From Minisyncoccota bacterium (GTDB lineage: Bacteria > Patescibacteriota > Minisyncoccia > Phycocordibacterales > PALSA-1337), in NCBI GenBank assembly GCA_041665325.1, contig JBAYJB010000004.1, positions 1,048-65,047 on the forward strand: DNA of 64,000 bases, read 5' to 3'. Made by a program: the position numbers and the translations under genes. Of the stretch, positions 22,321 to 63,969 are shown piece by piece (within the stretch, counting starts at the first letter, position 1; every line of letters starts with the position of its first letter). Under the pieces are notes generated by a model. It was not told the DNA's origin and did not search any database. It worked only from the letters and a program-made list of their open reading frames with translations.

Positions 22321-22552
22321 TTTTTTTGATAAATTATTAAATGGTAGTGGCTCGGCTCTTGGTCAAGACTAGATCGAAACGCACAAAAACATAAAATCCG
22401 CTCTCTTTATTTTGAGGGCGGCCAAAAAGCGCTTTTTATTATGAATGGTTGATCAAGGGTAGGAGTGATCGAGCCGTTGTAATCCTCCGCTAGGGCAGAA
22501 CTCAATCTGCGAAGTTAGGGAGAGCCTAGCAGAAGGGCTCTATTACGTCAAG

Positions 22553-22581
22553 TTGACTTATATCAGTAAACATGATAATAT
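22553..22581 (+). promoter_or_regulatory. Near-consensus sigma-70 promoter TTGACT-N17-TAATAT (plus strand), divergent from the rpoB upstream region
   Basis: TTGACTtatatcagtaaacatgaTAATAT. Confidence 0.55.
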
Positions 22582-22845
22582 ATATCTTATATTGGATTTT
22601 TGACATACAGCCTGTCACCAAGGCTCCTTAGGGAATTATCCCAAGTGTGAACTAGTCCGTGAGACTGTGGATAATCCACATGAAAAAAACATACCGTGAA
22701 AGGGACGAGGGAGTTAACCGCTGGGGCAGGACTCCGACGACCAACACGATGGCTAGATAGATGAAGATCACCGCCACTATCCGATGGATACGCAAACGCT
22801 CTTCCTCACCTTCGTAAATTCCTAAGTGATTTCACCTGGGAGTTT

Positions 22846-23094
22846 GTGTATGGATCTTCAGATGATCAGGCAGTTGAATTGGTTCGGAGGTCAGATTATG
22901 TCTGGCTCGCCCAACCAGGCTTAGATGTCAGCATGGGATTGGTTACTGCAGTGCGTAAAAATCTTAGCGGCCAAAAGGCACGTGGAATCGCCTACTTCCC
23001 AACCGCCGACATAGGTGAGATCGAGATCTGCTGGCCAGTCGAAGCACTCCGCGGGGGAGGTTGCCGGATATTGGCAGACGACCGGTTCTTGTAA
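22846..23094 (+). CDS. Small hypothetical protein (82 aa) inside the roughly 560-nt promoter-to-terminator unit; it could instead be part of a ncRNA
   Basis: GGGAG lies 7 nt upstream of the ATG and a terminator follows 23 nt after the stop; there are no recognisable motifs. Confidence 0.35.
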   Translation: MYGSSDDQAVELVRRSDYVWLAQPGLDVSMGLVTAVRKNLSGQKARGIAYFPTADIGEIEICWPVEALRGGGCRILADDRFL

Positions 23095-23116
23095 CACCTT
23101 CAAATGTAACTCGGGG

Positions 23117-23146
23117 CGCCTAAGCGATTAGGCGCCCTTTTTTGTT
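23117..23146 (+). terminator. Intrinsic terminator (plus strand)
   Basis: GGCGCCTAAGCGATTAGGCGCC followed by CTTTTTTG. Confidence 0.75.
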
Positions 23147-23153
23147 GGAGAGA

Positions 23154-23567
23154 TTATTTGCTAGTCAGTTTAGAAACAACCGATGTTAGATTGCCCACCC
23201 TACCAATCAAACTTTCCACTTTTCCAGTAAGGAAAACTACTCTGGTTATGATGCTCTCAGTTTTTTCATTGATATCTTCGATTCTATTATAGTCCTTGTA
23301 TGTCTTAACAGAGCCATGCTCATTGGTGATCACATACTCCAAGGTTTTAACATCCCCGTTCATCTGCCTCAAGATACGCAGAATAGCGTTATGGAACTTC
23401 TTTTGGAGCCATTCCTGAGTAAATGAATTAGGAACACCGATGTAAACAATGCCATCTTCCTGACGCAGGATTGAAGTATCTTTGAACCACGTGGAAAAAT
23501 TGGCTTGTGAGACGGCACTCTCAATCTCTAGCAGGGCTGTTTCCCACATTTTTGCTGTATCAATCAT
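23154..23567 (-). CDS. Standalone DnaA N-terminal (domain I)-like protein, 137 aa, with no AAA+ or DNA-binding domains
   Basis: MWETALLEIESAVSQANFSTWFKDTSILRQEDGIVYIGVPNSFTQEWLQKKFHNAILRILRQ follows the DnaA domain-I pattern (W..L..L...F..W......L..VPN.F...W....Y). The C-terminal 55 aa are unrelated to DnaA. Low GC. Confidence 0.6.
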   Translation of the reverse strand: MIDTAKMWETALLEIESAVSQANFSTWFKDTSILRQEDGIVYIGVPNSFTQEWLQKKFHNAILRILRQMNGDVKTLEYVITNEHGSVKTYKDYNRIEDINEKTESIITRVVFLTGKVESLIGRVGNLTSVVSKLTSK

Positions 23568-23964
23568 GAGGTGTGGAGTTATCTCTTAATAGCTCTTTCT
23601 TAAAATCATCCATGTATTTAGTGAAGTAGTCCTGATCTAGCTTTCTGTCTAGTTTCTTATCTAGTTCTTTTCCAAACGCGATAAAACTATTGTTTACGTA
23701 CTTTTCCATCGCCTCAAAACCTTCACTAACACGAACGTCCAATTGATCGAAGCGCACTTCTAGATCATTAAAACGTCCGAAAATAAAAGTGAAATTCTGA
23801 TGAACATTCTTGAAACACTCATCAACGGTCTTAAAATTAGCATCGATAGTCTCAAACCACCCATCCGCGGTTTGAAAGCTTTGTTCTATGCGAGACTCAA
23901 ACCCTTGAAACTCTTTCTTAGTAACTGGACTGGGATACAGTGGAGATATAGTCATAGTACTCAT
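23560..23964 (-). CDS. Hypothetical protein (134 aa), helical/repetitive, overlapping the DnaA_N-like gene by 8 nt (co-transcribed)
   Basis: The ORF overlaps the downstream gene, has low GC, and contains periodic F/L/V repeats. Confidence 0.5.
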   Translation of the reverse strand: MSTMTISPLYPSPVTKKEFQGFESRIEQSFQTADGWFETIDANFKTVDECFKNVHQNFTFIFGRFNDLEVRFDQLDVRVSEGFEAMEKYVNNSFIAFGKELDKKLDRKLDQDYFTKYMDDFKKELLRDNSTPHD

Positions 23965-24121
23965 CAGTAAAATGATTAAAGATTATTAAATTCACACTCA
24001 CTCCACAGAGATGCGGGACTTCTAAACGTATGTCCCGCCAATTAAGATTTATTGTTAGAGCCATTTTACCAAACAGAAGAAGCAAGCTGCAAGCTCACAA
24101 GCATTAAAATTCGTGTCTTAA

Positions 24122-24808
24122 TTATTTCCTGCCCTTCAACTTCCACTCATCTATCTTTTTGTGGTCTCCTGTTAAGAGGATTTTTGGCACTTTGTATTTT
24201 TTTCCTTTGTATTCGATGACTTCCGGGCGAGTGTAGACATCTGAGCTGGATATGCGATTTTCCTCAACTGATGAGTCGTGCCCGAGAACCCCTGGAATCC
24301 TACGGGTAATAGCATCTATGACGATCATGGCCGGCAGTTCCCCACCAGTTACGACGTAGGGCCCGGTAGAAATATCAACCATTGGGAATACTTTTTTAAT
24401 CCTGACATCAATACCCTCATAGCGGCCGCAAACCAGAACAATGTCCGTGAATTTCTTGAATGAATCGGCGGTAATATTTGAGAACTCCTTACCAGCCGGA
24501 CTAAAGAACACGATCTGAACTTTCTTTTTGGATTTAGCTGATTTTAATTTGGCGCCAACGGCTTTCTCAATAGCCTTAATCACTGGAACAGCCTCAATGA
24601 CCATTCCGGGCCCTCCGCCATATGGACGATTATCAACTCGGCGGTCAGCATATGATGGAGACTTCCCTTTCTTGACCGTCACGAAATCACGCGGATTATA
24701 GTACTTAACCGCTATATGCTTCTCCTTTTGCGCACGACCGAGAATAGAAGCGCCAAGATATGACTCTAGGGATTCTGGGAAAAGCGTGATGATATGGAAG
24801 GTGATCAC
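24122..24808 (-). CDS. trmD: tRNA (guanine37-N1)-methyltransferase TrmD
   Basis: SPOUT-fold TrmD with conserved blocks, located in the rpsP-KH-trmD cluster. Confidence 0.92.
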   Translation of the reverse strand: MITFHIITLFPESLESYLGASILGRAQKEKHIAVKYYNPRDFVTVKKGKSPSYADRRVDNRPYGGGPGMVIEAVPVIKAIEKAVGAKLKSAKSKKKVQIVFFSPAGKEFSNITADSFKKFTDIVLVCGRYEGIDVRIKKVFPMVDISTGPYVVTGGELPAMIVIDAITRRIPGVLGHDSSVEENRISSSDVYTRPEVIEYKGKKYKVPKILLTGDHKKIDEWKLKGRK

Positions 24809-62532: not shown

Positions 62533-63969
62533 CTATTGTATCTCACCCAGGAATTCCTTGCCCGCCTCGAAGAGCGTGGCCTCATCGCCATGTCGAGCCG
62601 TGAGCTGGAGGCCTAGCGGCAGTTGTTTGCCATCTCTTTCTGCCATGCCGCATGGGACGGATATGGCCGGCATGCCCGTCAGATTGGCCGTCACTGTGAA
62701 TATATCCTCGAGATACATAGCGACCGGGTCGCTCCCCTTCTCGCCGATCTTGAAGGCTGGCGAAGGAGTCGTCGGAGTAGCGATGAGATCCACGGACTCG
62801 AAGGCTTTGTTGAAGTCCTGGGTGATCAGACCTTTCACGGCATTCGCGCGGTTGTAGTACGCATCATAATAGCCGGATGAGAGGACATATGTCCCGAGCA
62901 GGATGCGGCGGATCGATTCTTTGCCGAATCCGGCACGGCGCGTCTTGAAATAATCCTCTATGCCGTCTTTGCCATCCATATGGAGACCGTATCTGACTCC
63001 GTCGAAACGAGCCAGGTTGGAAGAGACCTCGGCAGGCATGATGACATAATAGACCGGCAGAGCATGGGCAGAATTGGGCAGATCGATCTGCTTGATCTCA
63101 TAGCCCTTACTCTCGAATGATCTGATCGCCGAAGCAAATGCTTCGCTGACAGAACTATCTAAGCCTCCAAACTCCAGGAAAGCTTTCGGCACACCGATGA
63201 CTGGTTTCTTCCGACCGATGCGCTCACTTTTGTAAGTAGAACCATCTATCGTCGTGCCGTCTTTGCCATCCTGACCATGGATGGCGTTGTGTACGATCTC
63301 ACAATCTGCGACTGTCTTGCCGATCGGACCGATCTGGTCGAGCGAAGATCCCATAGCGATGGCTCCGTAGCGAGAGACTCCCCCATATGTCGGCTTGAAT
63401 CCGACCACCCCGCAAAGGCTGGCAGGTTGTCTGATGGAACCACCGGTGTCCGTACCGAGAGCAAACATGGCTCCATCCATCGCCACAGCCGCGGCTGAAC
63501 CACCTGAAGAGCCGCCGGCTACACGCGAAAGGTCATGAGGATTCTTCGTCACTCCGTAGGCAGAATTCTCCGTCGAACTTCCCATAGCAAATTCATCCAT
63601 ATTGGTGCGGCCAAGGAAGACGACGCCCTCTTCCTTCAGCTTGGCGATGACTGTCGCATCGTAGGTGGCATGATAATCTGCGAGGATCTTCGAACCTGCA
63701 CTAGCGATCTTGCCCTGAATGAGCAGGTTGTCCTTGGTCGCGCACGGGATGCCAGTCAGGAGAGTCGCTGTACCGTCCTTGAATCTCTTGTCTGCGGCCT
63801 TGGCCTGATCGAGTGCATCATCGAATACTTCCAGATACGCATTTATATCTTTATTCTTCGCCTTGATCACCTCCAAATAAGCTTGGGTAAGTTCGACGGC
63901 TGAAAATTCGCCGGCTTTCATGGCGGCGTGAGCTTTACGGATGGTCAGGTTGTGTAGGTCTATTTTCAT
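62533..63969 (-). CDS. gatA: Glu-tRNA(Gln)/Asp-tRNA(Asn) amidotransferase subunit A
   Basis: Amidase signature GGSSGGSAAAVA with the Ser-cisSer-Lys triad context, 478 aa. Confidence 0.93.
   Translation of the reverse strand: MKIDLHNLTIRKAHAAMKAGEFSAVELTQAYLEVIKAKNKDINAYLEVFDDALDQAKAADKRFKDGTATLLTGIPCATKDNLLIQGKIASAGSKILADYHATYDATVIAKLKEEGVVFLGRTNMDEFAMGSSTENSAYGVTKNPHDLSRVAGGSSGGSAAAVAMDGAMFALGTDTGGSIRQPASLCGVVGFKPTYGGVSRYGAIAMGSSLDQIGPIGKTVADCEIVHNAIHGQDGKDGTTIDGSTYKSERIGRKKPVIGVPKAFLEFGGLDSSVSEAFASAIRSFESKGYEIKQIDLPNSAHALPVYYVIMPAEVSSNLARFDGVRYGLHMDGKDGIEDYFKTRRAGFGKESIRRILLGTYVLSSGYYDAYYNRANAVKGLITQDFNKAFESVDLIATPTTPSPAFKIGEKGSDPVAMYLEDIFTVTANLTGMPAISVPCGMAERDGKQLPLGLQLTARHGDEATLFEAGKEFLGEIQ

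Follow-up and report, generated by a model that had tools for sequence, protein, structure and literature searches.

The gene pair described here lies on the reverse strand of contig JBAYJB010000004.1 from a Minisyncoccota bacterium, within a stretch of 64,000 nucleotides (nt) that was analyzed in full and is hereafter called the window. Its second gene encodes a 137-amino-acid (aa) protein, a genuine standalone DnaA domain I, and is translationally coupled to the gene for a 134-aa helical protein, here referred to as the partner. The coding parts and upstream signals of the pair are located as follows (window coordinates):

23154..23567, reverse strand: DnaA_N-tail gene, 137 aa, its start overlapping the stop of the partner gene by 8 nt
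23322..23567, reverse strand: DnaA domain I, codons 1-82, a KH-like alpha/beta fold (Pfam and structural model)
23157..23285, reverse strand: heptad coiled-coil tail, codons 95-137, NEKTESIITRVVFLTGKVESLIGRVGNLTSVVSKL, with I/T/V at position a and I/L at position d
23560..23964, reverse strand: partner gene, 134 aa, an all-helical heptad-repeat protein
24013..24038, reverse strand: leader hairpin or inverted repeat, GCGGGAC, a 12-nt loop and GTCCCGC, followed by a conserved CATCT
24063..24092, reverse strand: predicted promoter of the pair, read from the sequence

A first-pass annotation of this DNA had described two open reading frames (ORFs) of 137 and 134 aa with an 8-nt overlap, and both are present exactly so. 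The overlap reads ATGATTGA, an arrangement typical of translational coupling. The DnaA domain I pattern recognized in that annotation was borne out by profile search, where Pfam DnaA_N (PF11638) matched residues 6-67 of the 137-aa protein over profile positions 2-64 of 65, with an expectation value (E) of 1.1e-13 and a score of 51.1 bits against a gathering score of 24.6. The NCBIfam equivalog model for DnaA itself (TIGR00362) gave 44 bits against a cut-off of 344 and was covered only at profile positions 1-89. The protein has neither the AAA+ domain III (PF00308) nor the DNA-binding domain IV (PF08299) and is thus not classified as a DnaA; the earlier statement that these domains are missing agrees with the limited TIGR00362 coverage and with translated searches (tblastn), in which similarity ends at residue 88. 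Among solved structures, the nearest in sequence are those of DnaA domain I (4TPS, 8BTG, 2Z4R and 2E0G). An AlphaFold model built on a 12-sequence alignment had predicted local distance difference test (pLDDT) values of 77-90 across residues 1-80, and its top Foldseek matches were chains D and B of 4TPS, the B. subtilis domain I, at a root mean square deviation of 1.6-1.7 Å and a target template modelling (TM) score of 0.79-0.82. A second structural tier after DnaA domain I consisted of the KH-like domains of DciA (7YKM and 8A3V; E 2e-3 to 5e-3). The identical protein at NCBI carries the label 'DnaA N-terminal domain-containing protein [Candidatus Paceibacterota bacterium]'. As a description of what the pair is, this account is one in which we have high confidence.

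The remainder of the protein, from residue ~83 to 137, has no similarity to DnaA. It had been described earlier as an unrelated 55-aa tail, which holds with respect to DnaA, but the tail is not arbitrary: it is a conserved coiled coil that accompanies the partner. In the window protein, the hydrophobic periodicity at 3.5 residues lay above that of all 2000 shuffles, and 92% of the a and d positions are hydrophobic. Across the tails examined, hydrophobic power at this period was 1.6-2.3 versus 0.23-0.26 after shuffling, and in the seven long tails the observed periodicity was reached by at most 3 of 2000 shuffles. The a and d positions of the tails are 75-100% hydrophobic, chiefly V or I at a and L at d, a pattern reportedly typical of dimeric coiled coils, as is attributed to Harbury et al. 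in 1993. AlphaFold predicted a single long helix for residues 102-135 of the tail with low confidence, as would be expected of an isolated coiled-coil strand. The tail is common to the homologues at loci L085 and L090 and to the database proteins P0002, P0003 and P0011, while P0021 and P0031 have a more diverged form of it; the consensus of the standalone proteins is 'NEKxESxIxRxVxLTxKxESLIGRVGxLTS'.

The partner had been characterized from the outset as a repetitive helical protein, and this description stands. It contains seven F-x-x-[AIVL]-x-x-x heptads in a row, each having Phe at position a (FQTADGW, FETIDAN, FKTVDEC, FKNVHQN, FTFIFGR, FNDLEVR and FDQLDVR), with a heptad periodicity above 1999 of 2000 shuffles, and was modeled as helical throughout (helices 16-65, 73-109 and 112-129, at a low confidence of pLDDT 58). 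Its N-terminus (M-x-x-M-T-x-S-P ... VTKKEF) and C-terminus (KKLD.KL.Q.YF..YM) are conserved. No family match to the partner was found in Pfam, NCBIfam or PADLOC. The DUF16 coiled coil (PF01519) did not match the window partner; the partner at the diverged locus L083 reached 26 bits with it, under the cut-off of 40, and many other generic coiled-coil families matched that protein alike. Relatives of the partner were not recovered with a single-sequence query, and a profile search gave eight matches. Partner homologues at 27-30% identity lie directly upstream of DnaA_N-tail genes in L083, L087, L088 and L090.

Domain I of the window protein is 65-81% identical to the N-terminus of 446-450-aa DnaA proteins in related, Taylorbacteria-like Paceibacterota. 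Beyond residue ~80, true DnaA proceeds into its linker and ...GKTHL, and the standalone proteins diverge at this point to their shared tail. Searches of the 64-kb window by tblastn, using DnaA fragments and complete 448-aa DnaA proteins, found no DnaA sequence past residue ~88, and the remnants of a disrupted dnaA that the first-pass annotation had named as its refuting case were therefore not present there. A weak match at 63601-63681 was considered as a possible full-length dnaA and rejected, the site lying inside a 478-aa ORF that is the GatA amidase. Reference genomes were also scanned (185,579 species representatives, yielding 120 relatives, of which the best 80 were kept), a scan that could detect only DnaA proteins possessing domain I. 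Motif search classified 71 of the 80; the other nine had no exact copy of the search motif and were left unclassified. All 71 were ordinary DnaA of 446-450 aa (two of them cut by a contig end), and no standalone domain I was seen among these 71 classified of the best 80 of 120 relatives. The 80 reference dnaA loci share no genes with the window.

Synonymous sites between the window domain I and every full-length DnaA are saturated (proportion of synonymous differences, pS, 0.76-0.98), with a nonsynonymous divergence (dN) of ~0.15. We infer that the standalone gene is an old paralogue kept near DnaA by selection, and not a recent copy or product of conversion. Recent gene conversion from a resident dnaA had been considered, the window domain I being 81% identical to the DnaA of L003 and 56-67% identical to the other standalone copies, and was rejected on account of this saturation; unequal rates are the simpler explanation for its closeness to the L003 DnaA. 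In a domain I tree of 87 columns the standalone copies were monophyletic in 0/60 bootstraps, so that a single origin was not resolved. Residue Q9 of DnaA is replaced by E, K, R or D in the standalone copies.

Selection was measured against strain L085, in which the rpoB region is 98.3% identical to that of the window (dS, synonymous divergence; ω, the ratio of dN to dS):

trmD: dS 0.41, ω 0.02
partner: dS 0.05, ω 0.11
domain I: dS 0.14, ω 0.03
tail: dS 1.07, ω 0.12

The ω values of 0.03-0.12 within the pair indicate that every coding part of it, the tail included, is under purifying selection, and thus that these are real functional genes. The uneven dS, together with non-homologous DNA between the pair and the rpoB leader, indicates that recombination has made the locus a mosaic, and this comparison places a breakpoint near codon 98. 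Given the 98.3% identity of the rpoB region, the dS of 0.41 in trmD suggests that the mosaic reaches beyond the pair into that gene. trmD itself (24122-24808, compared with positions 1-460 of L085) has a GC content at third codon positions (GC3) of 0.49, unusually low for the genome.

When 1.84 billion representative proteins were searched exhaustively with a profile, 2937 matched at E <= 1e-3 and 7 at E <= 1e-30. About five tail-bearing clusters (50% identity) were found, namely P0003, which represents the window protein, P0021, P0031 and the shorter-tailed P0020 and P0061. Most of the remaining short matches were truncated or frameshifted DnaA still bearing NLNPRYTF. The partner lies directly upstream of the DnaA_N-tail gene in every context recovered (window/L002, L083/L084, L085, L087, L088, L090 and the contigs of P0021 and P0061), with an overlap of 1-8 nt or, in L088, a 9-nt gap. 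The order trmD, partner, DnaA_N-tail, rpoB recurs in five other genomes with both flanks readable, which range from near-identical to 36-58% protein identity. On the 77-kb contig of P0061 the gene order of the window is kept over ~16 kb: AsnRS (asparaginyl-tRNA synthetase), Gmad2, DHH, PPIase (peptidyl-prolyl isomerase), PDDEXK, response regulator, rpsP, KH, trmD, the pair, rpoB and rpoC. L089 (443-1055) has a partner gene after trmD, followed by an unrelated lysine- and glutamate-rich gene of 79-95 aa in place of the DnaA_N-tail gene, and thus the second position of the operon appears to be exchangeable.

The pair is a chromosomal operon, inherited vertically and specific to one narrow lineage of Paceibacterota, ultra-small bacteria of the Candidate Phyla Radiation (CPR). 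Its relatives are chromosomal, which answers the question raised in the first-pass annotation of whether they would be restricted to mobile elements. No relative of the pair was found in two scans of viral contigs or in phage genomes searched by tblastn, and within ±10 kb of the pair there are no integrase, transposase, repeat, phage or other mobility genes. The low-GC islet of ~38% noted earlier was measured at a GC content of 0.38-0.40 versus 0.55-0.60 in the flanks, with a GC3 of 0.37-0.45 versus 0.65-0.77 for neighbouring genes. An equal dip is seen in the diverged L083, and low GC therefore characterizes the genes themselves and does not indicate that they arrived recently. The single fixed site between trmD and rpoB, the lack of viral relatives and mobility genes in these searches and the low GC of L083 together argue for vertical inheritance over a recent mobile insertion, and the mobile-element origin first suggested for the pair is accordingly not supported.

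The putative promoter lies 30-60 nt beyond the trmD stop codon and consists of a -35 element TTGCAG (24092-24087), an 18-nt spacer, and an extended -10 with TGg (24071-24069) and TAAAAT (24068-24063); from it, transcription is predicted to start at about 24056. The motif TTTGGTAAAAT and a -35-like hexamer at an equal 18-nt spacing are kept in the diverged L083. A consensus promoter scan did not list this promoter, owing to its weak -35. Downstream of it, the 7-bp hairpin GCGGGAC...GTCCCGC previously reported in the 5' untranslated region was found with its arms at 24013-24019 and 24032-24038, in both the minimum free energy and the centroid folds. Equivalent 7-bp stems occur in L083 (GTAGGAC/GTCCTAC) and L088 (TCGGAAC/GTTCCGA). 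Among the three versions, 4/7 pairs are changed on both sides and 0 are broken (pairs counted by hand, the MAFFT alignment having shifted one sequence by one column), and these compensatory changes support conservation of the element, which might function either as an RNA hairpin or as a palindromic operator. Taken over its full length, the leader folds no better than shuffled sequences (z = -1.1). Conservation of the promoter, together with covariation in the hairpin, suggests that expression of the pair is regulated.

Five residues of the standalone domain I, W8, W27, N47, F49 and W53, are invariant in 10/10 family members. They are equivalent to W6, W25, N44, F46 and W50 of E. coli DnaA, which mediate domain I self-association and docking of DnaB and DiaA (PMC5448010); the position of E. 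coli E21 is N23 here, as in the DnaA of the lineage itself. Since the docking residues are all retained, the pair is still most reasonably regarded as modulating initiation. That it acts in this way through mimicry of domain I is a tentative proposal, to which we give somewhat less than an even chance; the best explanation as a whole, description and mechanism taken jointly, comes close to an even chance and stays short of it.

In the 137-aa protein a coiled-coil tail of 35-45 residues stands in place of the linker, AAA+ and DNA-binding domains of DnaA, and under this proposal the tail may dimerise or pair with the coiled coil of the partner, as suggested by the coupling of the genes and their shared coiled-coil character. 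The resulting complex would display two or more domain I heads without ATPase or DNA-binding activity. Such heads could bind the domain I modules of DnaA itself and the replicative helicase, and when bound may alter initiator assembly or helicase loading. Competition, acting as a dominant-negative brake on initiation, appears to be the most likely mode, and a bridging, stimulating role similar to that of DiaA and HobA would be a close alternative that fits the same anatomy. The specific reading of the 137-aa protein as a regulator by self-mimicry, a domain-I-only paralogue that is oligomerised through coiled coils, competes with or bridges initiator heads and would be the domain I counterpart of Hda, is possible but on the doubtful side. 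Its extreme variant would be an obligatory trans-acting subunit of a split initiator.

Several observations weigh against regulation by domain I mimicry. Residue R74, invariant in 65/65 full-length DnaA, is never R in the standalone copies, and its loss suggests some functional divergence from canonical domain I. Between the window and L085, 14 residues differ in the tail and 2 in the partner, and strict co-evolution of tail and partner is thus not evident. The partner can exist without a DnaA_N gene, as in L089. Furthermore, the presence of a complete DnaA beside the standalone copy in the host is assumed from its relatives.

Compared with domain I of DnaA (PF11638; 4TPS, 2E0G, 2WP0), the 137-aa protein has the same fold, the conserved Trp implicated in dimerisation and the alpha2/alpha3 docking patch. 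It differs in being a standalone protein without domains II-IV, with a coiled-coil tail in their place and R74 lost, encoded away from the dnaA locus together with a dedicated partner. A DnaA paralogue that acts as a regulator is not without precedent: Hda is said to have been described by Kato and Katayama in 2001 as a paralogue of DnaA that is essentially an AAA+ domain and regulates DnaA. It would provide an example of a single-domain paralogue serving as regulator and not as initiator. However, Hda derives from domain III and hydrolyses DnaA-ATP with the beta clamp, whereas the 137-aa protein derives from domain I and has no ATPase. The regulators SirA, YfdR, DiaA and HobA target domain I of DnaA (PMC4285326, PMC4776307, PMC5448010), and the point of action presumed here is the same, the docking surface of domain I and the recruitment of the helicase. 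As oligomers, DiaA and HobA contact several domain I modules together, as a domain I scaffolded by coiled coils would. In contrast, these four regulators have unrelated folds that bind domain I, and the candidate described here is a copy of domain I itself. Free-standing DnaA_N-only genes are also found in Orientia tsutsugamushi, where they are multi-copy cargo of the Rickettsiales amplified genetic element (RAGE), with 10-23 copies per genome (PMC10732058). Their products are likewise free-standing DnaA N-terminal domains of unexplained function, but the pair studied here is single-copy, at a fixed site in the core genome, and has a coiled-coil tail and a partner. Our literature search found no description of an architecture combining a standalone domain I, a coiled-coil tail and a partner.

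Other explanations were considered alongside this proposal, among them the suggestion that the pair is an anti-initiation factor or replication hijacker of a mobile element or phage in a recently inserted low-GC islet. The GC3 of the pair relative to host genes is in line with such an origin, as are the strain-variable cargo slot that adjoins it (described below), the recombination mosaic with dS from 0.05 to 1.07 along 1.5 kb, and the DnaA_N-only genes known as cargo of the conjugative Orientia RAGE (PMC10732058). Yet the pair occupies the same site in five other genomes, in one of them within ~16 kb of identical gene order, no mobility or phage genes accompany it, no relatives were seen in viral contigs or in a phage collection, its PHROGs match is only marginal (E 1e-4), and the dip in GC is shared by the diverged L083; we regard a mobile origin as quite improbable. 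Still less is to be said for a decaying fragment or pseudogene of a duplicated or disrupted dnaA. Although many short DnaA_N-only public entries are truncated or frameshifted DnaA, the window contains no linker, AAA+ or domain IV remnant, the tail is kept in at least 10 homologues with ω of 0.03-0.12, and partner, promoter and synteny are all conserved; this explanation was rejected and we consider it extremely improbable. A split initiator, in which the main DnaA of the host would be without domain I and the 137-aa protein would supply it in trans through coiled coils, would account for the very strong purifying selection on domain I and its intact interaction residues, and the host dnaA was not seen, the scan of reference genomes being blind to a DnaA without domain I. 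However, 72/72 classifiable related DnaA genes (71 of them from the reference genomes) are full length with domain I, R74 is lost in every standalone copy, L089 has a partner and no DnaA_N gene, and there is no sign of a matching coiled coil on a truncated DnaA, all of which makes a split initiator very unlikely.

Two further explanations were considered, each of which we regard as unlikely. The 137-aa protein could be a helicase operator similar to DciA (DUF721), with a KH-like head and helical tail that bind the linker helix/docking helix (LH/DH) module of the helicase and aid its loading. The structures of DciA are the next-best fold matches, and DciA has a similar layout, in which an N-terminal KH-like domain belonging to that fold class is joined to a C-terminal extension contacting DnaB (PMC9912922, PMC8216460). 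However, no DUF721 (PF05258) match appeared among Pfam results up to E 10, no sequence relationship was detected, and the sequence is DnaA-derived, being up to 81% identical to DnaA domain I. DciA is moreover widespread and essential, with a tail that is not a heptad coiled coil and without a coupled partner, for which there is no counterpart in DciA systems, whereas the present family, at about five clusters in 1.84 billion proteins and none seen in the best 80 of 120 related reference genomes, is too rare for the essential loader of the lineage. Alternatively, the pair could comprise a KH-type nucleic-acid binder acting on RNA or in transcription or translation, or a small module resembling a toxin-antitoxin system. 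Domain I has a KH-like fold with weak binding of single-stranded DNA (PMC5448010), the neighbours trmD, khpA-like, rpsP and rpoBC are RNA-related, and a pair of small genes that overlap at a variable site of low GC is reminiscent of toxin-antitoxin or defence modules. Against this, the conserved residues are DnaA-specific docking patches and not the GXXG nucleic-acid loop of KH domains, the neighbourhood reflects no more than core synteny that has been conserved, the only PADLOC match was one of the DnaA_N protein to Cas8b at chance level (E 0.004), the partner matched no PADLOC family and lacks a DNA-binding domain of antitoxin type, and no Pfam toxin-antitoxin domains were found in the pair.

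To our knowledge, essentially nothing has been established on how CPR/Patescibacteria control the initiation of replication, and we know of no description of SirA, DiaA, HobA or Hda there. A conserved and selected free copy of the docking domain of the initiator is a concrete candidate regulator for the CPR and, if the proposed mechanism is true, would be a naturally occurring case of regulation by domain mimicry. The family is sharply defined: its ten sequences share a docking patch that does not vary, whereas their coiled-coil tails do, and the gene is coupled to that of a partner. Even if the protein were inert, the entries labeled 'DnaA N-terminal domain-containing protein' mix truncated DnaA with at least one genuine standalone family.

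Some other matches of the profile search fall outside this family. P0030, which ranked third with 42 weak partial matches along 3655 aa, was dismissed as spurious; it is a translated tandem repeat of ~80 residues whose repeat scores were summed. P0054 and P0057 are short DnaA_N proteins with other C-termini, P0054 consisting of domain I and the linker followed by a segment that resembles a winged helix-turn-helix, and they could represent additional standalone architectures or chimeras produced by assembly.

Between the pair and rpoB, the DNA contains the following features:

22321..22557, reverse strand: rpoB promoter/leader, ~235 nt, strongly conserved in five genomes
22558..23131, unstranded: strain-variable cargo slot, outside the pair and setting its 3' boundary
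22846-23094, forward strand: 82-aa ORF without a family match, with a strong intrinsic terminator 19 nt past its end
23113..23138, unstranded: GC-rich hairpin of 11 pairs between convergent genes

An orphan RNA unit had been placed next to the pair by the first-pass annotation. Rfam gave no match in this DNA, and in its place we found the strain-variable segment and what looks like a conserved rpoB promoter/leader (22321-22557), which is probably what was meant by the RNA unit. Copies of the leader are located in L085 (1946-2185), L083 (1290-1526), L088 (1215-1421) and L086 (840-1081). It has a TTGAC-type promoter, followed by TGCTAGGCTCTCCCTAACTTCGCAGATTGAGTTCTGCCCTAGCGGAGGATTACAA ... CCTACCCTTGA, and covariation was seen in 1/26 predicted pairs.

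At 22664-22680, inside the variable segment, the palindrome TGTGGATAATCCACA is made up of one perfect DnaA box and another with a single mismatch; it overlaps a 47-aa hydrophobic ORF (22652-22795, reverse strand) and may have arisen by chance. An oriC-like cluster of DnaA boxes was also considered and found unconvincing, with 17 matches (<=1 mismatch) in the window versus 11 ± 3 expected.

The window and L085 align on either side of 22558-23131 and not inside it. The slot holds the 82-aa ORF in the window, a 129-aa receiver/VpsR-like ORF in L085 (1452-1948), a ClpP-family protease (PF00574, E 2e-25) in L086 (156-764) and nothing in L083 and L088, and all genes inserted in it are convergent with the pair. 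The hairpin at 23113-23138 is predicted to be a strong intrinsic terminator for the ORF on the forward strand and possibly a weaker one for the pair, no T run following the stem on the reverse strand. A homologue of the 82-aa ORF (E 1e-6), with the common C-terminus GCRIL..RF, occupies the equivalent site in L089 (slot 1110-1394), and the ORF is probably a real small gene.

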